The notes beneath the pieces are model-generated. The model was given only the letters and a program-made list of their open reading frames with translations. It was not told where the DNA came from and searched no databases. Below, one piece after another: positions 41,126 through 54,461 of a DNA stretch of 64,000 nt; the first letter of the stretch is position 1, and each line of letters begins with the position of its first letter. The translations under genes were made by a program, and so were the position numbers. The DNA lies in the NCBI GenBank assembly GCA_034226945.1, contig CP120453.1, forward strand, positions 558,001 to 622,000. The letters run 5' to 3'. Source of the stretch: Picochlorum sp. SENEW3 (lineage: Eukaryota).

Positions 41126-41894
41126 CTATACCAATCGACGCGTGGGTGCAACTCTGTTGTGGAAGACTCCCACACGATACCCCCGGTATCTCTACTCTCA
41201 CTCTGCAGCGTTGCTGACCAACACGCTCACGGTAGCCTGAATAGGAATATATACCATACCGGTACGAATTTTTTTTCTTTTCTGTCAATAGGGGATTATG
41301 TGTGTAAATTTTACATTCCAAGCCATACAACAAGCGCTTGTATGGGGCTACTACAGGCGCCACTAGGCGGACGGGAATGCCCCCCTAGAAGGCCTCCTGC
41401 CATCGCAGAACTTATTATAACCGCTACAATCGGCATTTCGGGACGCATCGCTGAAACTTTTGCCGCGGGGGACGCACGTTCGACACCAGGGCGAAATATA
41501 GGACGCATTTGCCTCATTACTATGGGATAGGACGCACTGCTGTATGGTCCACTCTCGGATTGGCACTGCGGTGCCACGTTCAATAGAGGAAGTAGTTGGA
41601 CTTATTAACTTACTGTCAACCCACTTGGGACATAATGAAGGGGACAACGCGACAAGGCTCGAATCTGCAAACACGAAAAAAAAGAAGACTGCGTTGCGGG
41701 TCGACGAGTGTGAATTCGAATTCGTTTCCAAACAAAAGTCCGTCCGCCCTTTCCATTCCGAGCATCACAATGTCGATTGGACTGCCATGAGGCTCATCTT
41801 CAACAAGGGGCCCGCGAGAATGCTTTGTTTATAGCAGCGTTATTATGCAATACAATTCATTATAATACGCGCATTGTCATTATCCTTGGGAAAC

Positions 41895-42716
41895 ATGGAG
41901 AACATGCCATGCGCCACTTCTTCTTCTTTCAGCGCAACTGGACGGTATATGTGCCATCCATGCTCAAGCATACCACAATCTACTAGTACTATATATAGAA
42001 ATATTCATGGGAGAAGAGTAGAGCGATGTATCAAAGGATGGAGAAGAAATGGGGCCGGGAGGTGGTCCGTCACGACGGACCTGTTTCAGCGGCAGGCATA
42101 CGCAGATGATGGGGAGGAGGGCTTTGGTGTCGATGAAGAAGCGCGTCGTCAAGGGATAGAAGAGTATGAGGAATTAAAGGAGATGCTGTTGCGGAGGACG
42201 TGGAAGTTTGGGGCTCTATTCTCCGTGTATTTGTTTCTGGTGGCCCCTGCTGATGCTCGGAATGCATCTCTGTTGGAACTTGTGGGATGTGCGGCTGGGT
42301 ATGGGTACTTGATGGCATTAATACGACACATAGAGTCGTATGGGCCAGAGAGTGATTGTCCGATGTTTGAAGCTGAGGATATAGAGCCAACATTTCTGAG
42401 GGTGCTTGCCAAGATTGGGGTGGGGTATGGGTACTCGTTGAATCCGAGGCTGTTGATTCCGATTGGTTTGGTGATGGCATGCGCAGCATGGAATAGTACG
42501 CAAGGAGTGGATCTACAGATTAGTCTGGTAGAACAAGGGTGTTTGGTAGGTGGTTTTTTGGGGTACAAAGTGGCGTTGTTTACAAAAGTTTATGATGATT
42601 TGAAGCCCAAGGTGTTGACGGCTGAGGAATTGATGAAGGAGAAGAGACCGGATTTGGACATGGATTTGGATGATGTGTCACTCTCTGATATTATAAATAA
42701 AAGGCGTGATGAGTAA
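41895..42716 (+). CDS. CGL160/Atp1(UncI)-like thylakoid membrane protein
   Basis: Transit-peptide-like N-terminus; YEELK..., GYGYLMAL, NPRLLIP and GFLGYKVA, with four TM segments. Confidence 0.7.
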   Translation: MENMPCATSSSFSATGRYMCHPCSSIPQSTSTIYRNIHGRRVERCIKGWRRNGAGRWSVTTDLFQRQAYADDGEEGFGVDEEARRQGIEEYEELKEMLLRRTWKFGALFSVYLFLVAPADARNASLLELVGCAAGYGYLMALIRHIESYGPESDCPMFEAEDIEPTFLRVLAKIGVGYGYSLNPRLLIPIGLVMACAAWNSTQGVDLQISLVEQGCLVGGFLGYKVALFTKVYDDLKPKVLTAEELMKEKRPDLDMDLDDVSLSDIINKRRDE

Positions 42717-42745
42717 TAATGATAACAAGACATGTATTTGTGTGA

Positions 42746-43795
42746 TTACTCTTGAGTCATACAATCATATGGCGGTTGTACCCAGACGTACTCATCAACA
42801 TATCCGGCCACGTCGCAGCTTGCGGCGCAGCTGTATATTACTATCGCACCCCAATCTGGGTTATTATTATCTGATGGATCGACATCTAAATTGTTCAAGA
42901 GCTGCGGCATGATTTGAAATTCGAATCGCCGTGGTCCCTGGCAGTGGGGGCAGGGTGGAATGGATGATGGATCTGGAATCCCTGCCGGGCTAGGACACAG
43001 CGGTTTCACCCCCTCCTCGAAACAATATCGAAGTATTTGGGAAGGAGATAACGATGTTCGAGCGGCGAACGATGCAAAATGTTTCTGTTCCTCTGGCATT
43101 GTTTCTTCAATCTGATTGATCAAATCTGATGGGAGCTCCTCCTCTGTATATTTTTCTGACACGTTCGATTCCTCCGCTTTGATCCGCAATGATTCCATAG
43201 GAATATCTTGTATGGGCTCATCTTCGATGACAATCTCGAATTCTGGGAATAAGGCTATGGAACATGGAGCCTCCTGCTGTCCTGGTGCCATGACTGCCTG
43301 CTCATGTTGTGCAGCATTCCAGGGATCTCGGATAGTATTCGCTGTATCTATGGGTCTAGGACCTTGTCTATTTGCATCATCCCCTTCTTCAGGTGGCTCA
43401 AAATCGTAATATTCATTTCGACGCGGAAGCTGACACCGCATTGCTCTGACTCCATCAGAGGACTGTGAGACTTTTTTTCCATCCACACTGATAAACACAA
43501 ACACCGTTCTATGAAACGCCCTGGGATTCTCGTCCACTGGAGCGTATACTTGGAGTAAGAATTTCATACCTGCTAGTGATTCTGTCGATGGAAGATGGAT
43601 AGGGTTGAGCCATGCTGGCCGCCCACCTACTTTGCTTGGAAACCTGTGTCGTAAGAGGTCTGTATTCCGAATGGGAGGTTCTACGAACCCCAATAACCAT
43701 GGGATATCCTCTTCTTCTTCGTCATCAGAGAGTTGATTGTGCTTAAGGCATGCCTGCTTCTCGTTTTCCAAGGACATGTCTGTATCGCCATGCAT
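42746..43795 (-). CDS. PDCD2: PDCD2/TSR4-family protein
   Basis: FPSKVGGRPAWL, FLLQVYAP, FHRTVFVF, PSQILRY, CPHCQGPRRFEFQIMPQLL and DWGAIVIYSCAASC. Confidence 0.9.
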   Translation of the reverse strand: MHGDTDMSLENEKQACLKHNQLSDDEEEEDIPWLLGFVEPPIRNTDLLRHRFPSKVGGRPAWLNPIHLPSTESLAGMKFLLQVYAPVDENPRAFHRTVFVFISVDGKKVSQSSDGVRAMRCQLPRRNEYYDFEPPEEGDDANRQGPRPIDTANTIRDPWNAAQHEQAVMAPGQQEAPCSIALFPEFEIVIEDEPIQDIPMESLRIKAEESNVSEKYTEEELPSDLINQIEETMPEEQKHFASFAARTSLSPSQILRYCFEEGVKPLCPSPAGIPDPSSIPPCPHCQGPRRFEFQIMPQLLNNLDVDPSDNNNPDWGAIVIYSCAASCDVAGYVDEYVWVQPPYDCMTQE

Positions 43796-44038
43796 GTCGA
43801 TTCGTCGTTTCTTGTAGATCTCAGTGCGCCATTCTAGGTCTGGTTGGAATTTGTGCTACTTAATATTCGTATGTACAAAATTAAGATTACAAATGGGATG
43901 ATGGAAGAACAATGCCACAAAAGGTAGATGTGGAAACTGTCTGATGGAAGCAACCAACAATGGAGGGATGATTATAGTTGTTTGTTTGACGATGTGATCA
44001 GCAACAATAGTTTCTGTATCTCACCTCACCTCACAGGT

Positions 44039-45549
44039 CTATGTGGCTGTTGCAGGTGTTGTGGGAGGAGGTGGGGTCTCAAGCAAATCACTTGTGGTGA
44101 AGTACATTGGATGGAGTTGGTCCAATCTATTCCACTTGTCAACATTCTCTTTGGCTTGCTTCTCTCCCTCTGCTTTTTCCTTCATGGTCGCAGCCAGAGC
44201 TTGTTTCTCATTTGCTTCTGAAATTTTTTGATTGCCTCTGTCTTCAAACATGGCAGCTTGTCTCTCAGCTTGTCTGGCAGCAGATTCTGCCTTTGCTGCC
44301 TCTGCCATGGCTGCTTCTTTCTGTTTCTGAATTGAAACTGCAATTCTTGCAGCCTCGATGGCTTGTCTCTGGATTTCCAAGGCTCTGTCAGTGGCCTCTG
44401 TGGCAGACTTTCTGAGCTCAGCGGCATTGCCAAATTTCTGCTCTGCCATCTTTGCTGGCATCTGGGCCTCGTGGGCTGCAACAACGGATCGTTCCTTTGC
44501 ATCCTCAAGAGCCATTTGAATCATATAGTGCTTGTTCTTTAAATCGGCGATATTGGTACGACGAGTGGTGAGAAGCCTCTCCCAGATCCTTGCATTCTCC
44601 TTTCTCTCCTCAAGTTCCTTCTTGGACCACTGGATCTCTTCCTTCAATTGAATGATTCGCCTTTGCAGCATACCAAGTTCTTTCTCGCATTCAAGGATGT
44701 AGTCTGCAAGGTCCCCAGGTTTATTGTCTTCTGCTTTCACTTCCAAATCAGACAGTTCAGCCAGGGCAGAGGAGATCTGGTTGTTGAGGACATCAATCTC
44801 TTCTTGCTTCTTCTGTGCCACTTCTTTCATCTGCTCGCTTTCTGAAAGAAGAGACTTTGCTCGATTTTCGAGAATTTGAGCGTGGAATTCGTAGTCTTCT
44901 GCTTGAGATGTCAGATCTTTGGCAAGGAAATCAGCCTCATCGGCATTCTCAAGCTTTGGGAATGCTTCCATGGCAGCCTGTCTTCTCTCCTTTTCAATTT
45001 TTTCAGCTGCTTCAAACTTTGCCTGCTCCTCAGCTTCCGCTTGAAGGACTGCTTCCATTGCTTTTCGAACTTTTTCTCTCTCTTCTTCCGCTTCCTCGAA
45101 CAGTGCTTTTGATTGAGCCTCGAGATCTTCTGCCTCCTTTGTCAAGGACACAAGCTCTGCATGATGCATTTCAATTTCCTTTTGTTTTGCAGCTGCCAAA
45201 AGTGCATGCTCCTCAGCTTTCTTCGCCTCGTCGGTCATAGCTTTGACCTTTTCATCGTGATCTGCAGGGCTCTCGAATTTTCTTGGAGCTTCCCCTTGTG
45301 CAACAGGTGTCACAAATTGTGTACCAAGTTCTCCCTCGTCTGAGACATCGAGGGCGATAGGCTTGCTCTTGGGCGTATCTGCAGAGTACAGTTATTTCCA
45401 GATAACATCACGAAGATCGACAGGGCAGTCCTTCAAATTGTATCATCACGAGATTTCCTCCAAGGGATTTCTTGGAGGGCTGAGGGATACTTACCTGAGA
45501 CTGTCTTCTTGAGCTCAGACTGCTGCTGTTGGTGCGAAAGCGTCTCCAT
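44039..45549 (-). CDS. Long coiled-coil Ala/Glu/Lys-rich protein, function unknown (exons 45549-45495, 45378-44039)
   Basis: Intron 45379-45494 (GTAAGT..CTGCAG) supplies an in-frame ATG exon METLSHQQQQSELKKTVS. Confidence 0.75.
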
Positions 45550-45894
45550 GGTGGGTATTAAACCAATTTCAAGAGATAGCGTGTATCAGAGAATGAAACC
45601 TTTTGTTACTGACGTCCAACGTGGTATGGGTATGAGAAGCCAAATGTCAGGACCTGGCTGTCTGTGCAATGCAACAAAGGTTCCAGACAATAATTTGACC
45701 TGTAGTATAATGTAGCGGTGATTACAACTTTCTCGATATTCTCTTCTATAGTCTATCGTAAAGTTTGAGTGCGAATATCAGGCATCCTCTTCTAGGCTGA
45801 GACAATGTTTCTAGGACACAATCTTGGACGGTCCAATATCTGTGCTTTTCAAATAGACTGCCACATGCATACTAGATCACATCAAATTGGCAGT

Positions 45895-48867
45895 CTACGA
45901 CTTGCCCAGTCCGAATCGCTTTGCTCTGTCTTTGAGAGACATTTTAGGCCGTGCAGGCGACTTGGATGGTGGCTTCTCACGAGGTCGTTGCTCTGGCATT
46001 GTCAGATCCACCATGACAGTGTCCACGTGCTTCTGACCGCTTGCCTCTGGTTCCTTTTCGGCGGGAGAATGGTGAACATCATCGACAAGGTTGATTTCTT
46101 CCACAATAACCTCAGATGTATCTGGAGCTTTCTTCCTCTTGTGGCCAGCCTTTGGTGACACAGGACGAGATGCCTTTTGTGGAAGAGGAGCAGGTGCTGG
46201 CTTTTTCTTTTGCAAAGGAGGAGTAGGTGCTGGCTGCTTCTTCTGTGGAGATGCTCCTTCAGGTTCGCGAGCTATATCTATCAAGTCATGCTTTTTCTTC
46301 AAAACTCTAGACACCTTCTCAGGAGATTGAGTGAATGGAGAGAACGCACCGGGTATCATCCCCCGAGCAGTATCATTGTCCTCAACCCAGTCCTCCAAAA
46401 AGTCTTCTTTGCCTATCAAAGGTAGGGTGTCGCCATCCGACAAATCTTTTAGCCCTTTCAACCATCTGAGCGACATCACCTCTATATTAGATACCCTGCT
46501 GAAATGATTGGTCACGATTGTTGGGTGTCCTGCAACAACGTAATCCACCTTGGGTGTGTAATTCTGTGACACCATCCCTCCCAATTGCTTCACCAGCTTT
46601 TCACAGGATTCCTTGAAATATCGTCGTGTTGATTTCGCATCCACGGACTCTTCATACGGTCCATATATCGGCTGTTTCGAATGATTTATAAAGTATACCA
46701 TTTTAGATTCGAGGACATGTTTGCGTGGCAATTTATCTGGCACATCACATGGCAAAAATCTCTCAGCAACTGTCCTTGTCCGTATTCCACGAACCTCAAC
46801 ATGTCCATCCGCCGTTGCATCCACCTTTGACTTCATGTCTTCCATCCAGCGTGTAATATCTTTCGTCGATGTAGCCAATCGAGGCTTCTGCTGTTCTCCA
46901 AGAACAGCACCCAAGAGAGCTGGATCCCTCATCACTGCACATGACGAATTCCATCTCCCAGGAGGCATCAGTGTACCAGATATCGACACGACCCGAGACT
47001 CAATCAAATTGGTGACCCTAAAGAAAGGCTTTTCTGTGTATTCTATGCGAGGCTTCAAGTTAGAATACAAAATTTCAGAATCATAGGAAACCAAGGAATT
47101 CCTGACCCTTGCAAAAGGTACCACATGCAAACAATCCTCTTTTGAATTGTCCTTCTCGCTATCAACCACCCCAATATCCCAATACTCTACTCCACCATCG
47201 CCAATCATGGTCCCGCCGATAATAATGCCGTTGACGATCGATGCACCCATGTATGTCCTCACCACCACCGTGGACAACCTCTCCTTACTATTCCATTCAG
47301 CTTCCAACGCCCTCAAACGCACCCCTTGAGACCCAAAGCATTCCACCGTATCCCGGAACATTTTGATAGACTCTATAGTTGACGCAGTCACGCAGAGTGG
47401 AATTCCCGTCACCATGACACGCTGTGGAATGAGAGGCAATACTTTAACCCTCAATGGAAATCCCTCCTGACGATCACGCACAGAGTACTTGAATCTCGTC
47501 TCTAAACTTTCCAAACGCAGCTCTAATGCTTTTTCATAAACATTTTCATCATCTAAATAGAGTACATCAGATACAAGTATCATGATTTCCAAGTCCTACA
47601 CAATCATTATATCATCAGAGTACTGTATAGTATAGCAGTATTGAGACTTGTGTACAATAAGCAGCACACACACACACAGAAAAAATACACAGAAAAAATA
47701 CACCAAGCAAACACATACCACATATTGAGGCAATGCATATGTAGAGTACTCGGCGCACTCAACCTTCTTGAGCCCATCTTCTATCGCACCACTCTCATCC
47801 AGCACAGCATCCAACACAAAGCGTGGCTCAAAACATTCCTTGCAAGTATTCCACACAACCACCTGTGCCTCCACCACAAAATCTCCTTCATCCACCATAC
47901 CCTTTAGAGAAGATTCAAGCATTTTAAAATACCGATCAGGCACCGACTCGTTTGAAAACACAGTAACAGACCCTCCACACCGATGCACTTGAATCTGATA
48001 CCCATCAAACACACCCTCCACCACCACACTCATAGGATTCAAATTCTCTCGAAATCGCCTCTCCATCATCATATACGCATCATGAATATTCAAAACAGTC
48101 GCACTCGACTGCCTTCGCAATCGCTTCCCACACACAATGCGAGACATCTCCTCCCTCTCATCATGATGACACTCTTGCCCATGGAACGTCCTGCCCACCG
48201 CCTCCGCCAACGTCCACCCCCGCATAAAATAACACATGGAAGCATACTCACTCCACTCTTCCAACACATCCCGCACATCAATATACACCTTGGCATTCCC
48301 AAGCAGGATCCGTGTCAACCACTTGAGCTCATCTGCAGATAACTCATCCATACACCTCCGCAACAATGCCACTTGCCCATCCACACCCACCTTACAAAAT
48401 CGATCCAACATGGCATTTACATCCTCCACCTTCCAATCAGATGAAGGTTTCCGCTCAGGGCCAGAATCCCACACAAACAGCTTGCTCTTGAGCAGCTCTG
48501 ACAACTCCCGTGGCTCCCCCAGCGCCAACGCCAGTGGATCCTTCTCCCGCCAATGATACAATACATGAGTATATTCTTCATCTATTTTCCGATCTGATGC
48601 AGCCAAGAGTTCATAAATAAGACGATGCTCGCTCAATCGCTCCGTTCTACTTCGCTCGTCCAATCCCGGAAGAATCAAACGAAACACCTGAAACGCATCC
48701 TTTGTATCATCTCGAACGCATGTATCGATAAATTTAGATATTGTACGCGTTCTCATATACGGGTTCCGTCGATATCTCTCCAGTACATTGAGAAACCCGC
48801 ACACTGTACCGAATGACAGTTCCGAATTCTTCTCTACATAAATTGGGTCCTTTTCATCTCCATTCAT
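45895..48867 (-). CDS. DNA ligase IV-like protein lacking the catalytic lysine (exons 48867-47719, 47595-45895; ~949 aa)
   Basis: Ligase DNA-binding domain (FRLILPGLDER, EDVNAMLDRF, ELKWLTRILL), degenerate adenylation domain (VVEGVFDGYQIQVHR), OB-like region and a BRCT-like domain (MVYFIN..CEKLVKQLGG..DYVVAG..VMSLRWL). Intron 47596-47718 (GTATGT..TGTAG), phase 0. Confidence 0.78.
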
Positions 48868-48917
48868 ATCTCCATTCGTCTTAATATTTTTTAAGTATGA
48901 GATGCGTTGCCCTTGGT

Positions 48918-49727
48918 CTACGTGGAGGTAAACAACTGTGACAATTCCTTATCTAAAGAAAACCCTCCCCCCAAATCTACAAGGTGTACAGTCAACAGTC
49001 TCTGTCGAAAATACTCATCAACAATATGCGTGATTTCATCATGCATCTTTGCATCATCAGTATTATCTCCGTGACAGTCGACTCTATCATCATCATCATC
49101 ATCATCCTCTTGCTGCTGATCATGGTGGGTTTTTTCCTTCTTCTTCTTCTTCTTCTCAGTACTGGCCAGCACAGCCATCATGGCTGTGTTGTTGTCTTCC
49201 ATGGACAGAGGCCTCCATATGTCCTGTCCTGGAGTCTCTGGAAGAACATGATCATCATTATCATTATTCAAAGTATTACCAGGAGAGCTATGATGCTTTC
49301 GGGAAGACTCCTCATGCCGACACTGTTCTCCATGGTGGTGAAGGCGATGCAGCACCTTGTGCAGCGCTTCCACCTCACGCACAGCCTCCTCCACAACCGA
49401 CCTCAACCCATGCCGAATCCTTGTATAAACATCATCCCTACACTCTGATGTACACACATCTTCGCACAGCCGCACTGGCTCATCCAGACACTCTGATACA
49501 ATCCGCTGACACAGGGCATCTCGCCCCTCCCTCCTCCTCCCCATACCTCTCTCCCCTTCCAACTCAAACAATACCCATGCTCCCCATATAGACTCGCGTA
49601 TACATCCATATCTATCATTCTCATTTAAAACCTCTGCTACGAGCAGGCATTCTTCCAACAGCGTTTTTCGAAAGATTCGAATTCTACTGCTGTTTGGCCC
49701 TTTTGCTTCTTGTGAGGATGCTTCCAT
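48918..49727 (-). CDS. Hypothetical protein (269 aa, low-complexity K/D tracts)
   Basis: ATG-initiated ORF with the G/T-rich coding-strand bias of neighbouring genes; no family recognised. Confidence 0.55.
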   Translation of the reverse strand: MEASSQEAKGPNSSRIRIFRKTLLEECLLVAEVLNENDRYGCIRESIWGAWVLFELEGERGMGRRREGRDALCQRIVSECLDEPVRLCEDVCTSECRDDVYTRIRHGLRSVVEEAVREVEALHKVLHRLHHHGEQCRHEESSRKHHSSPGNTLNNDNDDHVLPETPGQDIWRPLSMEDNNTAMMAVLASTEKKKKKKEKTHHDQQQEDDDDDDDRVDCHGDNTDDAKMHDEITHIVDEYFRQRLLTVHLVDLGGGFSLDKELSQLFTST

Positions 49728-50081
49728 CCGTCGCTTGCCCTCTTCTTCTTGTTGGTTTTTTTTCTTCTATCTCTTCTTCTTCTTCTTCTTCATGTTCTCA
49801 TGAGATTTCCAACATACCTGTATTCATCCATCATCATCATAGTACTACTAGGGAGACCAGAGGGGGGTACCCATCTATCTAAGGATGTACATCCCATCCA
49901 GGTACCTCTCTGACCGATTGGATGGTTTCAATGCTCCAGGGACCCATGCGTGCCTCTTCTTCAATATCTACACAAATTCACCCAGAAGCAACGAGTTCTC
50001 CTATAATAACATATATATTAGATAAAAACACAGAGCAGAGTAGAAAAAAAACAAAAGAGAGATATCATTGATTTCTCGAAA

Positions 50082-51392
50082 ATGGCAGGTCAGGGGGGAA
50101 CCAGGACGTCTCAAACGGGGCCAATTGGATCCAAGGAAGATTATTCATGTCCTGTGACTCCAGAGCAATATATGGATGGTATGAATGGGTCACAGCAGGA
50201 GGATGCGTCTTCTTTGGGCCGTGGGCACGACAGCAGCCAGAGCAGCGGGAACGCGAGCTGTTCGTCTTGGGCATCTGTTGATCGGTGTGGTGAGGATGCT
50301 GAATGGGTAAAGAAGGATTTAAATCGGGTGTTTGGGGCTATGGGTCTGGATGAGGATACAGCGTCTCATGCTGCTACCACAGGGCATGCCTCCGAGGAAC
50401 ATGATGATTCGAAAGAGCCTATATTGCAGGATAATGATGAGAGATTTTGCTTACTGCCTGTCAAATATCACAAGGCGTACGAGTATTACAAAATGGCACA
50501 GGCCAGTTACTGGACTGTGGAGGAGGTGGATTTGTCACAAGATAAGCGGGATTGGGATCGTTTGAATGATGCGGAGAAGCACTTTATTAGTTATGTGTTG
50601 GCATTTTTTGCGGCATCGGATGGTATTGTGTTGGAGAATCTGGCGGTGAGGTTTATGCAAGAGATTCAGATTCCTGAAGCACGGGCCTTTTATGGGTTTC
50701 AGTCGGCGATAGAGAATGTGCACAGTGAAATGTATGGGTTGTTGTTGGAGCAGTATATTGATGATAAAAAGCAGCGGGATCATTTGTTTAGGGCTGTGGA
50801 GACGGTGCCTTGTGTGCGGAAGAAGGCTGCGTGGGCGATCAAATGGATTCAGTCATCAATGTGTTTTGCTGAACGGTTGGTGGCGTTTGCATGTGTGGAA
50901 GGGATTCACTTTTCGGGGTCTTTCTGTTCTATTTATTGGTTGAAGAAGAGATTGTTGATGCCAGGGTTGACGTTTTCGAATGAGCTCATCTCTAGAGATG
51001 AGGGCTTGCATACTGATTTCGCATGTCACTTGTATTCATTATTGGTTCACCCGCTTCCTGAAGAGCGAGTGAGGATGATTGTGGATGAAGCTGTTGCGTT
51101 GGAGAGAGAGTTTTGTTGTGAGGCGTTGAGTGTATCGTTGGTTGGTATTAATGCGCAGCTTATGGCAGAGTATATTGAGTTTGTGGCTGATAGGCTGTTG
51201 GTTGCGTTGGGGTGTGAGAAGATGTACCATACTCCGAATCCGTTTGATTGGATGGATATGATTTCGTTGCAAGGGAAGACAAATTTTTTCGAACGACGTG
51301 TGGGTGAGTATCAGAGAGCAGGCGTGATGCAAAGTGTGTCAGGCAAAACACAACAGTATGAGCATGTTTTTACATTGAATGAAGACTTTTAA
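50082..51392 (+). CDS. RNR2: Ribonucleoside-diphosphate reductase small subunit (class Ia R2)
   Basis: [32 protein letters not shown] (radical Tyr), [17 protein letters not shown] and C-terminal FTLNEDF. Confidence 0.95.
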
Positions 51393-51445
51393 CTGAATCA
51401 TAATAATACATGTAATGTGATTTGACATGAATGAAGTATTCGTAT

Positions 51446-54292
51446 TCATTGTTGGTGGTGGTGTTTGGAATCAGAGGATGGTGGAGGGGTTTTGATGTGT
51501 GTGGGAATGTAGGCCAAGTGACGCATGGTTGGCCTGCCGTGAGGGCAGTTCCATGGGGATACGAGTTTGGATAGATTATCTAAAATACGCCTCATGCTTG
51601 TCTTGGTGAGAGCTGTTCCAATCATGACGGAGCTCCTGCATGCTTTTGATGCCAAAAGGGCTCTGAATCGGGATGGATATACTGCATGTTCCTTTGTTGA
51701 ACTATCAGCATGTTCCAGATGCCATAAGGATCGCTCTCCATCCTCAATCATAGAGATCATTTCCATAACATCTGATGATCCAAATGTCATTCCCTTGCAC
51801 TGAGGGACAGTGATGAGACGAAGTGCTCCGTTTTCTGGGTTTTCCTCAAACTCAAAGCCACTGTTTGAGAATATCTTGAGGTTTTCTTTCACAATCTGTT
51901 CTTCTCTGGGAGACAGTTCAAGTTGGATTGGAGAGATAAGACCTTGTTTATGAAATTTAGCTGTTCTCTGTAGCGTTTCAAACGTGTGCTTTTCGTCAGA
52001 GGCATGTTGGTCGATGATGAACAAGTCTTGACCAAGTTTTCCAATGATAAATCCAAGGTTGAACTGTCCAATGATGTCCATCTGCTTGAAAAACTCTTTT
52101 TTGAAAATTCGTTCCAGTTCGTGTTCAGCTTTCGTTTCCTTGTCTGAGGATTCCCGAGGACGCATGTCATCCTCCATGTTGACCATTGTGGCATCCTGAA
52201 AGGCCATCCTATGCCGTGCATGAGACATATCCTTGCTCTGCTTTTGTTTTCTCGCGCGCTCGAGAAGTGCCTCTCGAATAGCAGTCATGTCACATTCTAT
52301 ACTATTTGATTTTGAGTCTGATGACGTGATGGGTTTTGTTTGTGTTTTGGCTTCTGTTGTTTGTGGTGGTGCAATGGTGTTGTTGTTATCCTCTTCATCA
52401 TCACTACTACTACTACTACTGGCAGCAGCCAGGTTGACGTCAATATGAGTATCTCGTTGTATCACGATCTGAGTCATGGGTACGTGATCCTTCATGTGAT
52501 CATCATGATGACCCACTGCTTCTGGTGTAACCGTTGCCTCCTTCATGATGCCCACTGATTTTTCCTTGTCAACATGCTCTGTAGGTTCATGTGACGTCGA
52601 GGGATCCATCGTCTCATCATCCTGAATATCATCATCTTCACTGATACTTTTACTGTTGTTCAGATCACCTTGAAGAATATCACGATCCATGGAAGCTGGA
52701 GAAGGCGAGGTGTTTCTCTCCCTTCTTGGTGAGCACGATGGTTGATCGTCACGTTGAACGTCAATCACATCCACCTGACGTACAGGAGGAGTCTGTATAG
52801 ATGATGGGAGCTTATCCATTGCAAAGTCTTCGAGCGATGCACGGCGTTTCTTGTGCTTCTGGGCATCTACATCATCATCAACCTGCTGGTGAGAAGGCTC
52901 ACTGTTGTTACCAACATCCTTTTGAGGAAATTGAGGCATTGTCATGGGCAATGTCTCAATCGCGCTGGTCTTCTTCTCCAAGACAATATTTTCATTCTTT
53001 GATATAGGCAATACTTTGTATTTTCTTTCTTCTATGTCGCCTTTACTGCCATCATCATCATCATCTTCTTCTTCTTCTTCTTCTTCTTCTTCTTCTTCTT
53101 CTTCTTCTTCTTCGTCCACCTCTTTGTCCGTGTTCCTGTGACACGCAAACATGTCGTCTATTCTTCGATCTCTATACTGCGCGTCAGTCTTTTCGACAAC
53201 TTTGGCAACTTTAAACGAACATTGCTGAGCATTCCATGCATGTATCAAGCACTCCTGAAAGATCTTGCAAATCTCTCCCTCCTTGTGAAAATACACCTTT
53301 CGTTTATCTGGAGTAACGTTAATATCTACCTTATCCGGGTCAACGTTGAAGTTCACCACACACATGGGCCTCATCGTGTGAGACGAGTATGTCTTGAACG
53401 TCTCATACAACACAGAGCCTGCCTTGGGAAACTGAATGGGTCTCTTGTTCACATAAAAAAATCGCGAATCAGTCTTTGCATGTTGACCTACACGACAACT
53501 TGATACCAGCCCCTCAATAGACAAACCATCCTTCTCGAAAGAAATCGGAACCAACGAATCTGCTATTCTTCTGCCAAACACATGCCCCACCACAAGCTTG
53601 ACTGCTTCCATACCATCCTTGCCACATGCGCTACCGAACGCCTGAGTATTCAATACAGTCGTTCTCGCAGTCCTATTTCCCACCTGATTCGTACACAGAA
53701 ACCGAACATGCGTGTATATCAGTGCATAACTTTGCAAGATGGATACCAACTTGGAGTAGTCCCTCTTCAAATTCTTCTTAAATTCTTTATGACGAACAGG
53801 GAGGCTGTGAAACAAGTCCTTTACTGCAATTGTAGTACCGACAGTCCTTGCAACCATATTCTCCCCCACCAGCTCCCCGTGAGAATCAAACTCCAACTGA
53901 ACCCCGCACTCTTCATCCTCCACCCGAGTCACAGCAGACACACGAGCAACTGCACACAACGAACTCAATGCCTCCCCTCGAAAACCAAAACTCGTCAATT
54001 CCTCTAGGTCCTCAAATGCATCAAGCTTACTCGTGTGATACTTCTTCATCAACACTGGCCTATCAACAGGCGCAACACCACACCCATTATCAGAAACTTC
54101 AATAGACTCACTCCCATACTCTTTCAACCTGATATCAATCGACGTCGCCCCGGCATCGATACTATTCTCAATTAATTCCTTGACAGCTGTAGAAAGATCC
54201 ACAATCACCTGTCCACTACAGATGCGATGAACTGACGAAGGATCGATCGCTGTAATCCTATTCCTTCGAGTATTCGCCTCTGCTGCTTCCAT
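51446..54292 (-). CDS. PMS1: MutL-family mismatch repair endonuclease (plant/yeast PMS1, equivalent to human PMS2)
   Basis: VKELIENSIDAGA, FGFRGEALSSL, DINVTPDKR, DQHASDEKHTFE, ACR and CPHGRP. First ATG at 54292. Confidence 0.95.
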   Translation of the reverse strand: MEAAEANTRRNRITAIDPSSVHRICSGQVIVDLSTAVKELIENSIDAGATSIDIRLKEYGSESIEVSDNGCGVAPVDRPVLMKKYHTSKLDAFEDLEELTSFGFRGEALSSLCAVARVSAVTRVEDEECGVQLEFDSHGELVGENMVARTVGTTIAVKDLFHSLPVRHKEFKKNLKRDYSKLVSILQSYALIYTHVRFLCTNQVGNRTARTTVLNTQAFGSACGKDGMEAVKLVVGHVFGRRIADSLVPISFEKDGLSIEGLVSSCRVGQHAKTDSRFFYVNKRPIQFPKAGSVLYETFKTYSSHTMRPMCVVNFNVDPDKVDINVTPDKRKVYFHKEGEICKIFQECLIHAWNAQQCSFKVAKVVEKTDAQYRDRRIDDMFACHRNTDKEVDEEEEEEEEEEEEEEEEDDDDDGSKGDIEERKYKVLPISKNENIVLEKKTSAIETLPMTMPQFPQKDVGNNSEPSHQQVDDDVDAQKHKKRRASLEDFAMDKLPSSIQTPPVRQVDVIDVQRDDQPSCSPRRERNTSPSPASMDRDILQGDLNNSKSISEDDDIQDDETMDPSTSHEPTEHVDKEKSVGIMKEATVTPEAVGHHDDHMKDHVPMTQIVIQRDTHIDVNLAAASSSSSSDDEEDNNNTIAPPQTTEAKTQTKPITSSDSKSNSIECDMTAIREALLERARKQKQSKDMSHARHRMAFQDATMVNMEDDMRPRESSDKETKAEHELERIFKKEFFKQMDIIGQFNLGFIIGKLGQDLFIIDQHASDEKHTFETLQRTAKFHKQGLISPIQLELSPREEQIVKENLKIFSNSGFEFEENPENGALRLITVPQCKGMTFGSSDVMEMISMIEDGERSLWHLEHADSSTKEHAVYPSRFRALLASKACRSSVMIGTALTKTSMRRILDNLSKLVSPWNCPHGRPTMRHLAYIPTHIKTPPPSSDSKHHHQQ
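53066..53113. repeat. (TCT)n microsatellite encoding poly-Glu in the PMS1 linker
   Basis: Direct reading; it adjoins a (TCA)n tract encoding poly-Asp. Confidence 0.9.
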
Positions 54293-54461
54293 TCGTACTA
54301 TACTAGGTCTCAATACATATTATGAAGCAAAAAAAAGTAGTGTAACGCTGTAGTAATGCCCATGCACAATATGCTGTGGCATGCAGGTTTGAAATGCAAC
54401 CATTATTATTAGGGATCTCTTATATACAAGAGATCTCTCTTAGGATCTTGATGAAGATCCA

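Follow-up and report, generated by a model that had tools for sequence, protein, structure and literature searches.

In Picochlorum sp. SENEW3 a DNA ligase IV has been kept as a gene but, to judge by its motifs, lost as a ligase. The gene lies on the minus strand of a 64,000-nucleotide stretch of contig CP120453.1 (positions 558,001 to 622,000; the window), and its product, which we call pseudo-ligase IV, retains the fold of its ancestor but none of the catalytic motifs. We think it probable that the protein is a maintained, non-catalytic LIG4 descendant that would serve as a scaffold at DNA ends and is perhaps the sole LIG4 of its lineage.

Gene structure and expression

Read on the minus strand, the gene has two exons and a product of 949 amino acids with no internal stops. 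It is made up as follows (window coordinates).

47719..48867, minus strand: exon 1, amino acids 1-383, with the start codon, the DNA-binding domain and the first half of the nucleotidyltransferase domain (open frame; agrees with the P0001 model)
47596..47718, minus strand: intron of 123 nucleotides, GTATGT...TAG, with an in-frame TAG stop inside (sequence; X2 and X17 contigs)
45895..47595, minus strand: exon 2, amino acids 384-949 (566 residues), with the rest of the nucleotidyltransferase domain, the OB and BRCT domains, the tail and the C-terminal motif, and the stop (open frame; P0001)

The coding part of exon 2 runs from 47595 to 45898 and the stop codon occupies 45897-45895. P0001, the NCBI model from Picochlorum sp. 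BPE23, shares the exon junction and is 94% identical across exon 2. Contigs from runs X2 and X17 join 47594/5 to 47718/9, leaving out exactly the 123 nucleotides of the predicted intron, and the X2 contig spans exon 1 with zero differences; the intron sequence is retained in DNA-like contigs of runs X14 and X9. The original prediction of an unbroken spliced frame of about 949 codons thus agrees with the gene model and its junction, and the splice itself is seen in contigs from two studies. We found that the gene is spliced and expressed, transcription being deduced solely from the intron-less contigs, which come from two of the four runs compared and from runs whose kinds are guessed ('?' for X2 and 'RNA?' for X17). 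Two other splice sites were considered: an acceptor at 47623 was rejected because the reading reaches an in-frame TAG, and a donor at 47763 is in frame yet unused by the contigs.

Loss of the catalytic motifs

ATP-dependent ligases require the lysine of the KxDG motif for the enzyme-AMP intermediate, and their motif III is typically LDGE. Neither is present in pseudo-ligase IV, where the motif positions read as follows.

47995..48018, minus strand: motif I position, E-G-V-F-D-G-Y-Q, with Val286 (GTG, 48012-48010) in place of the adenylated lysine (sequence, alignment, hhalign)
47848..47877, minus strand: motif III position, VVEAQVVVWN, canonically ILDGELVVWN (motif alignment)
47305..47331, minus strand: motif IV position, SQGVRLRAL, canonically EEGIVIKAL; the glutamate is lost and the lysine has become arginine (motif alignment)

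We refer to the group of relatives that share these losses as the dead clade. In an hhalign comparison of this clade with canonical green-algal LIG4 (100% probability, E 1.4e-70, 733 columns), Val286 falls on the lysine of ETKFDGERIQVH, and the profile-profile alignment places no other lysine in that column. The GTG codon had been singled out at the start as the replacement of the motif I lysine, with another lysine in motif I as the alternative; the alignment upholds the former and gives no sign of the latter. Motif alignment likewise agrees with the initial readings of FSN (at the position of the canonical YFSR) and VVEAQVVVWN, and with the failure to find EGxxxK.

The losses are not peculiar to one strain. 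Motifs I, III (LDGE), IIIa (FD), IV (EGxxxK), V (LxKxK) and VI (RFPR) are replaced in all eight full-length members of the clade, in which the motif I lysine position is occupied by V, M, V, S, A, A, H and H; two N-terminal fragments also lack the lysine and have N and C there. The claim that several catalytic positions had been lost together, with frame and scaffold domains kept, was therefore more modest than the facts. The KxDG lysine and motifs III to VI, by which a catalytically competent ATP-dependent DNA ligase (EC 6.5.1.1) is recognised, are absent. On these motifs, pseudo-ligase IV is predicted to be unable to form ligase-AMP; we propose that it would therefore be unable to seal DNA.

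Some features of the nucleotidyltransferase domain might be taken to mean that the protein is still an enzyme, a ligase or nucleotidyltransferase whose lysine has moved or whose chemistry has changed. The dead clade retains the D-G of motif I, Lys343 is invariant in eight of eight members, and the domain is conserved to the same degree as in active ligases (40% versus 42% mean pairwise identity); moreover, part of PMC10211241 deals with pseudoenzymes whose catalytic residues have migrated. However, Lys343 lies just past motif III, where canonical proteins have R, K, E or T; besides the nucleophile, the residues of motifs III, IIIa, IV and V that bind the nucleotide have gone, as has motif VI, a requirement for adenylation. 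We regard a surviving enzymatic activity as highly improbable.

Domains and fold

Apart from its motifs, the protein is recognisably a ligase, with these parts.

48133..48855, minus strand: DNA-binding domain, amino acids ~5-245 (Pfam DNA_ligase_A_N, E 7.7e-15, 55.9 bits, cut-off 24.6; helical bundle, pLDDT mostly >85)
47305..48120, minus strand: degenerate nucleotidyltransferase (adenylation) domain, amino acids ~250-480, with the intron within (weak Pfam DNA_ligase_A_M; fold recovered; motifs I-IV replaced)
46810..47277, minus strand: OB-fold domain, amino acids ~490-645, without motif V (WLKLKPDY) and motif VI (LRFPR) (AlphaFold beta-barrel strands E492-E613; motif alignment)
46381..46722, minus strand: single BRCT domain, amino acids ~675-788 (beta-alpha-beta-beta-alpha-beta-alpha at 682-767 in the AlphaFold model; weak Pfam BRCT, 0.012)
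45961..46380, minus strand: disordered Pro/Lys-rich tail with PPLQKKKP-type repeats and acidic V/I-rich stretches (pLDDT <50 over 789-948 of P0001)
45898..45960, minus strand: C-terminal motif ...PKMSLKDRAKRFGLGKS (60% mean identity; common to canonical green-lineage LIG4)

The AlphaFold model has a mean pLDDT of 77.6 and is ordered over residues 5-788. Its best structural matches in Foldseek are human LIG4 in NHEJ synaptic and ligation complexes (PDB 9n83, 7lsy and 9cq6) and its catalytic domain (6bkg and 3w5o), with E 1e-28 to 1e-23 over 680-830 columns, headed by chains from the complexes (9n83_F, 1.1e-28; 7lsy_Y, 5.3e-28; ~830 columns). Matches at E <=1e-19 take in LIG4, LIG1 and archaeal ligases, and the three-domain core of the ligase superfamily is present. 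Human LIG4 is only 14% identical to pseudo-ligase IV and differs from it in that the latter has a single BRCT and neither catalytic lysine nor motifs. Searched with phmmer, neither exon matched a ligase among PDB sequences, the protein having diverged too far for pairwise comparison; its annotation in the ESM Atlas is 'DNA ligase with BRCT'.

Across the clade Pfam detects DNA_ligase_A_N in six of six members (best 5e-19), BRCT in five of six (best 6.8e-5) and DNA_ligase_A_M in three of six, the last scoring 18.5 bits on exon 1 by itself and 30.1 bits on the complete P0001 protein (cut-off 26.2). The OB domain, DNA_ligase_A_C, was matched in none of the six although the AlphaFold model folds it.

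The statement that the LIG4 architecture (DNA-binding, nucleotidyltransferase, OB, BRCT) is kept proved only in part correct. Domain order and fold stand, as they do in comparison with the LIG4 of Chlorellales (Chlorella variabilis CHLNCDRAFT_138420, Auxenochlorella, Micractinium), the nearest branch of the tree, but the linker and the second BRCT region are missing. Tandem BRCT domains flanking an XRCC4-interacting linker were not found; there is one BRCT (682-767) and then the disordered tail, whereas Chlorellales LIG4 has ~290 structured residues past BRCT1, which the Chlorella model folds into a helical linker and a second BRCT-like region. Pfam PF11411 is detected neither here nor in the Chlorellales LIG4s. 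Those proteins also have ETK(F/L)DGERIQVH, ILDGE, FDIL, EEGIxxK, WLKxKPDY and LRFPR, none of which occurs in pseudo-ligase IV.

What the two do have in common is a basic C-terminal K-L-S-L-K/R-E-R motif. This is the most conserved segment of the dead clade, and a helix is predicted within it (954-960 in the AlphaFold model). A basic motif of the (V/L)S(L/Y)K(D/E) type ends nine of ten dead-clade models, and the tenth looks truncated, its relative L001 having the motif; similar C-termini are found in the LIG4 of Auxenochlorella, Micractinium, P0016, P0021, Klebsormidium, Selaginella and Fragaria. Thus the ligase clamp (DNA-binding, nucleotidyltransferase and OB domains), one BRCT and the green-lineage C-terminal peptide have all been kept.

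Selection and conservation

Strain differences show how the gene is evolving. The 28 coding differences among the 40 listed (110 more are unlisted) comprise 17 synonymous and 11 nonsynonymous changes, giving a pN/pS of ~0.19 for this subset, pooled over three runs. Two indels in the coding sequence, of 15 and 18 nucleotides, are each in frame; in-frame length differences between strains fall in the disordered tail. Picochlorum orthologues that are 94, 84 and 77% identical have open frames, and the eight full-length relatives with the same motif losses are 31-39% identical. We conclude that purifying selection maintains the gene.

The gene also keeps its place. The order PMS1, RNR2, pseudo-ligase IV gene, PDCD2-like gene, membrane protein gene is preserved in L001 and L002, which hold two of those relatives and in which the pseudo-ligase is 31% identical and its neighbours 49-67%; it evolves faster than they do. 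The loss of the motifs is thus old, being common to Picochlorum and to uncultured relatives that have the gene at the same chromosomal position.

Faster divergence and missing motifs are what a decaying pseudogene would show, and an assembly or annotation artefact could imitate them. Against decay stand a 949-codon frame that is open here and in relatives down to 31% identity, the splicing seen in two studies, the low pN/pS, the in-frame indels, the conserved synteny and the confidently predicted fold; against artefact stands the presence of Val286 in an independent assembly (P0001). Absence of expression with a dN/dS near 1, the signature of ordinary decay named in advance, is contradicted by the pN/pS of ~0.19 and the intron-less contigs. 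Expression, selection and synteny rule these readings out, and we give them next to no credence.

Conservation within the altered domains is as tight as in active enzymes. Mean pairwise identity in the dead clade is 43% for the DNA-binding domain, 40% for the nucleotidyltransferase domain and 42% for the BRCT, compared with 40%, 42% and 28% in canonical relatives. The clade has conserved motifs of its own (RNPYMRTK, LALALGEP.ELSELLK, YMERRF, CFEPRFVLDA, LRALE..WN and PPGKW), and the stem of the clade is long, at 2.21 changes per column in a 22-row IQ-TREE analysis. A burst of change on the stem was therefore followed by conservation of its products. An enzyme fold without its catalytic residues, under selection and expressed, is the mark of a pseudoenzyme, inactivity in this instance being judged from the motifs; retention of fold and sequence with loss of catalytic motifs is also how pseudoenzymes are described in parts of PMC10211241 and PMC5106787. 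We found no literature report of a pseudoenzyme among ATP-dependent DNA ligases, and the 'pseudoligase' matches listed concern ubiquitin.

The same long stem and the new clade-specific motifs that followed it, together with the loss of the XRCC4-binding region, would suit a neofunctionalised DNA- or chromatin-binding protein working outside double-strand-break repair, with the clamp reused, for example, for nick or end binding in the control of replication, telomeres or recombination. Yet it is the C-terminal LIG4 peptide that is best conserved, and BRCT1 is kept, which argues that the original recruitment is retained, and the evidence points to no particular other process. We consider such a change of process decidedly unlikely.

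Descent and the question of a second LIG4

Pseudo-ligase IV is a descendant of a green-algal DNA ligase IV gene. In the 22-row tree the dead clade (support 100/100) lies within an 11-row clade (100/99) that includes the LIG4 of Chlorella, Micractinium and Auxenochlorella, and a quick 40-row tree agrees with a place inside Chlorella-type LIG4; both trees were built without LIG1 or LIG3 sequences. Every sequence match with an intact motif carries the LIG4-type signature E-x-K-x-DG-(E/D)R.

The original prediction offered two explanations, a lineage whose LIG4 is dead or an extra paralogue, and the data lean towards the first: the clade nests where the species should fall, and the matches listed include neither an intact Picochlorum LIG4 nor a dead copy from Chlorella, Micractinium or Auxenochlorella. 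A search profile made from LIG4s of the canonical Chlorellales type, which ranked at the top the LIG4s of two Micractinium species, Auxenochlorella and Chlorella variabilis, gave no Picochlorum protein among the best 120 of its 265 matches; this search scored the 7,999 candidates sharing most words with the query, in a database that included the BPE23 proteome. Conversely, the six matches to the dead-clade profile include none named from Chlorella, Micractinium or Auxenochlorella. Among named genomes the dead and canonical forms therefore look mutually exclusive, as far as sequence searches go. Less firmly, pseudo-ligase IV may be the only LIG4-type gene of its lineage, because a search that finds four named Chlorellales LIG4s gave no intact one from Picochlorum.

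The second explanation, an ancestral duplication that left an intact LIG4 (unannotated or fragmentary) beside a dead paralogue that acts non-catalytically in end joining as regulator, decoy or adaptor, has points in its favour. The quick 40-row tree places P0009, a canonical fragment, next to the dead clade as its nearest sister (SH-aLRT 93), and if it comes from an organism that has a dead copy too, a duplication would be indicated. Loss of BRCT2 and the linker and a very long stem are typical of a released duplicate, and end joining is active in P. celeri (part of PMC10497401). These points have to be set against the outcome of both profile searches and the position of the clade in the 22-row tree, which is that expected of the Picochlorum orthologue. 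On balance we think a paralogue unlikely.

Proposed function

We propose that pseudo-ligase IV is a non-catalytic scaffold that would bind or bridge DNA ends in double-strand-break repair, with another ligase, most likely LIG1, sealing the break. Recruitment would probably still be through the conserved C-terminal peptide and the BRCT. Canonical binding of XRCC4 is probably lost because the inter-BRCT linker and the second BRCT region are absent, and loss of that region, which would deprive the protein of LIG4's best-known partner, weakens a simple picture of the same complex minus catalysis.

There is precedent for a structural LIG4. Ligase-dead lysine mutants of LIG4 or Dnl4 in yeast, human cells and mice support repair structurally while another ligase seals, according to parts of PMC3694833, PMC9638927, PMC11754673 and PMC10858965. 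Those are point mutants made in the laboratory, in which the other motifs and the XRCC4-binding region are intact, whereas pseudo-ligase IV arose in nature long ago and has been extensively remodelled. For engineered dead LIG4 in mammals, LIG3 is the back-up. The green lineage is not known to have LIG3. End joining works in Picochlorum celeri, for which random integration, indels and homology-free insertion of markers at Cas9 cuts are described in part of PMC10497401; PMC12301381 and PMC10943592 contain nothing on DNA repair in Picochlorum.

These observations allow a more far-reaching suggestion, which we offer tentatively and with less confidence than the scaffold itself. A green picoalgal lineage may have replaced its only LIG4 by an ancient pseudo-ligase that neither adenylates nor binds XRCC4 in the canonical way and yet remains indispensable at DNA ends. 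LIG4 would in that case contribute nothing but structure to classical end joining, sealing would fall to LIG1 or a different ligase, and nature would have its own parallel to the mouse with catalytically dead LIG4; the C-terminal peptide would be an unrecognised motif by which green-lineage LIG4 docks a partner.

As far as we are aware, engineered active-site mutants have so far been the only means of studying how LIG4 holds DNA ends without catalysis. If confirmed, a ligase-dead LIG4 conserved over a long time in nature would give independent evidence, from evolution, that the scaffold function can be selected by itself. It would also map the surfaces on which that function depends: those of the DNA-binding domain, the remodelled nucleotidyltransferase domain, BRCT1 and the C-terminal peptide would be required and the second BRCT region dispensable. 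Picochlorum is being developed as a production alga, and a non-catalytic LIG4 bears on how transgenes integrate there and on whether knocking out the gene would favour homologous recombination.

Loss of catalytic motifs from a retained ligase fold

The ligase-like gene encodes a protein with a predicted DNA ligase fold from which, by sequence alignment, every catalytic motif is absent; it is conserved, and it is expressed. The codon at 48012-48010 is GTG and specifies Val286 within VVEGVFDGYQIQVH, where the canonical LIG4 proteins that we recovered have ETK(F/L)DGERIQVH. The original prediction held that the motif I lysine had been replaced; this is borne out by the codon and by aligning profiles of the dead clade (the motif-less LIG4-like proteins of Picochlorum and uncultured relatives) and of canonical green-algal LIG4, where the valine falls in the column of the lysine (probability 100%, E 1.4e-70, 733 columns). 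Judged from the aligned motifs, the damage extends beyond the nucleophile to motifs III, IIIa, IV, V and VI. VVEAQ stands where canonical proteins have ILDGE (motif III) and VSDVL where they have AFDIL (motif IIIa), and alignment with canonical LIG4 revealed neither motif V (WLKLKPDY) nor motif VI (LRFPR) in the window protein. FSN in place of YFSR and VVEAQVVVWN at motif III were present as first read, and the EGxxxK motif IV reported missing is represented by SQGVRLR, the canonical form being EEGIVIK. Such a protein would be unable to form enzyme-AMP or to seal DNA. That it is a non-canonical enzyme, for which the invariance of Lys343 speaks but against which the loss of the nucleotide-binding motifs tells, ranks third in likelihood among four rival explanations.

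Pfam gave a clear DNA-binding domain (DNA_ligase_A_N, 7.7e-15), a weak adenylation domain (18.5 bits with exon 1 by itself, 30.1 bits with the whole of P0001, the Picochlorum sp. BPE23 protein), a weak BRCT match and no OB match, and phmmer matched no ligase among PDB sequences. An AlphaFold2 model of P0001 from a 52-sequence alignment is confident (mean pLDDT 77.6) and ordered over residues 5-788, with a helical DNA-binding domain, a nucleotidyltransferase, an OB barrel and a single BRCT (682-767), followed by a disordered tail (789-948) and a short C-terminal helix. Foldseek matched it best to chains of human LIG4 from synaptic and ligation complexes of NHEJ (9n83_F, 1.1e-28; 7lsy_Y, 5.3e-28), ahead of LIG4 catalytic-domain crystals, LIG1 and archaeal ligases. 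In canonical LIG4 of Chlorella variabilis, as modelled, about 290 more structured residues follow BRCT1 and form a helical linker and a second BRCT-like region, and the canonical alignment carries matching D.(F/L)GD.Y and GG...THV signatures there, whereas the dead protein has no counterpart. Therefore the LIG4 architecture, originally described as kept, is retained only through BRCT1.

Expression and conservation of the gene

Both exons are free of stops over 949 codons.

Structure of the ligase-like gene, from the sequence
48867-47719, minus strand: exon 1
47718-47596, minus strand: intron of 123 nt, GTATGT...TAG, with an in-frame TAG inside
47595-45898, minus strand: exon 2
45897-45895, minus strand: stop codon

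P0001, entered as 'hypothetical protein M9435_003979 [Picochlorum sp. BPE23]' (966 aa), was assembled and annotated independently; it has the identical exon junction and 94% identity to the window protein over exon 2, where two more relatives have 84% and 77%. This match marks the window's source as a Picochlorum-like green alga of the trebouxiophytes. Contigs from four public sequencing runs were aligned to 45700-49000. Those of runs X2 (an exact match to the window) and X17 (a different organism label and study) join 47594/5 to 47718/9, omitting exactly the predicted 123 nt and upholding the proposed splicing, while DNA-like contigs of X14 and X9 contain the intron. We conclude from the intron-less contigs, the kinds of both runs being guessed, that the gene is expressed. 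Upstream of the ATG the X2 contig continues for about 76 nt, as far as 48943.

Strain comparison listed 40 differences, with 110 further; the 28 coding differences among those listed (17 synonymous, 11 nonsynonymous) give a pN/pS of about 0.19 (640 synonymous and 2207 nonsynonymous sites). Both length differences within the coding sequence are in frame and fall within the tail's Pro/Lys repeat: 15 nt are missing in X17 and 18 nt are added in X14 (listed as three adjacent pieces). In BPE23 the repeat is 17 residues longer.

46185-46245: PPLQKKKP-type repeat in the disordered tail, varying in length by strain, in frame

Mean pairwise identity in the dead clade is 43% for the DNA-binding domain, 40% for the nucleotidyltransferase, 30% for OB and 42% for BRCT, against 40%, 42%, 41% and 28% in canonical Chlorellales-type LIG4. 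The disabled adenylation domain, at 40% versus 42%, is therefore not drifting.

The metagenome loci L001 and L002, on GC-rich contigs, encode members only 31% identical to P0001 and to the window protein. Window (41835-54319), L001 (323-11749) and L002 (341-12145) have a common order of PMS1-type MutL, RNR small subunit (transcribed divergently from the ligase-like gene), ligase-like gene, PDCD2-like gene and small membrane protein, the neighbours being 55-67%, 49% and 62% identical; it follows that the gene has stayed at a single locus ever since the lineages diverged. A pseudogene, the least likely of the four rivals, or an artefact is excluded for practical purposes by the open spliced frame, pN/pS, in-frame indels, conserved domains and synteny.

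Other features around the gene
44039-45391, minus strand: extra coiled-coil ORF, 450 aa, Glu/Ala/Lys-rich, between the ligase-like and PDCD2-like genes
48868-50080: divergent intergenic region, 1.2 kb, between the ligase-like gene and RNR2
48918-49766, minus strand: long ORF, 282 aa, with poly-Asp and poly-Lys runs, inside that region

At the corresponding place L001 and L002 have nothing equivalent to the coiled-coil ORF, and the 282-aa ORF is probably not coding.

Origin of the dead clade

Exon 1, searched exhaustively with HMMER, matched 80 sequences. The seven nearest that span motif I (P0001, P0004-P0008, P0012) all lack the lysine, and nearly all the more distant ones that reach across this motif have the LIG4-type E-x-K-x-DG-(E/D)R. 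A dead-clade profile gave six matches in all, adding members P0098 and P0099, and all six motifs are lost in 8/8 full-length members. A careful IQ-TREE run (22 rows, 836 columns) recovered the dead clade as monophyletic (100/100), with a stem 2.21 changes per column long, and nested it with Chlorella, Micractinium and Auxenochlorella LIG4 in an 11-row clade (100/99), outside which Scenedesmus, other green algae and streptophytes branched successively. A quick 40-row tree concurs, the nearest sister being the canonical fragment P0009 (SH-aLRT 93). The deeper-branching P0007 and P0012, both N-terminal models only, are among those lacking the lysine; P0007 still has ILDGK at motif III, which hints at a stepwise loss of motifs.

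A canonical Chlorellales-type LIG4 profile, in a word-limited search, matched 265 database proteins, led by Micractinium (two species), Auxenochlorella 'LIG4' and Chlorella variabilis. No Picochlorum protein was among the best 120 of these, though the BPE23 proteome is in the collection, and the dead-clade profile matched no protein named from Micractinium, Auxenochlorella or Chlorella. Canonical and dead forms therefore look mutually exclusive among named genomes. Between the alternatives first proposed, a dead lineage LIG4 and a scaffold paralog, this pattern in the best 120 of 265 matches favours the former, falling short of proof; a dead paralog alongside an unseen intact LIG4 is still the likeliest of the four rivals. 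A preprint on the relative Auxenochlorella reports Ku70, Ku80, LIG4 and XRCC4 in it (PMC12633428). Our literature search found no publications on Picochlorum LIG4.

A putative structural role

The extreme C-terminus (...PKMSLKDRAKRFGLGKS) is the dead clade's most conserved segment (60% mean pairwise identity).

45898-45960, minus strand: C-terminal motif (last ~21 codons), a basic patch then (V/L)S(L/Y)K(D/E)R/..L

It resembles the ends of canonical green-lineage LIG4, such as Auxenochlorella ...PKLSLRERMARIRAAKQG, and those of Micractinium, P0016, P0021, Klebsormidium, Selaginella and Fragaria. The dead clade has the motif in common with canonical LIG4 from both green algae and land plants. 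It might serve as a nuclear-targeting signal, or as a docking peptide for partners that has so far escaped notice.

Retention of this peptide and of BRCT1 suggests that the original recruitment was kept, and absence of the linker and second BRCT suggests that binding of XRCC4 in the canonical manner was not. A DNA-binding protein repurposed outside DSB repair is the second likeliest rival. By analogy with engineered ligase-dead LIG4/Dnl4, the most economical role for the dead protein would be structural. Four papers describe such proteins as still promoting end joining, with another ligase sealing (PMC3694833, PMC9638927, PMC11754673, PMC10858965). In Picochlorum celeri, end joining is clearly at work: random linear-DNA integration, small indels and homology-free marker insertion at Cas9 cuts are all on record (PMC10497401). 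Sealing in the window's alga would most likely fall to LIG1. LIG3 is not known from the green lineage. The literature search found no natural ATP-dependent DNA ligase pseudoenzyme, its 'pseudoligases' being ubiquitin E3s only. A pseudo-LIG4 should interest DNA-repair specialists and is directly testable, the alga being transformable.

The tail also has acidic stretches, conserved across the Picochlorum species and to some extent in P0098, that we take to resemble SUMO-interaction motifs.

~45990-46130: acidic V/I-rich tail stretches, EVIVEEINLVDDV and DTVMVDLT
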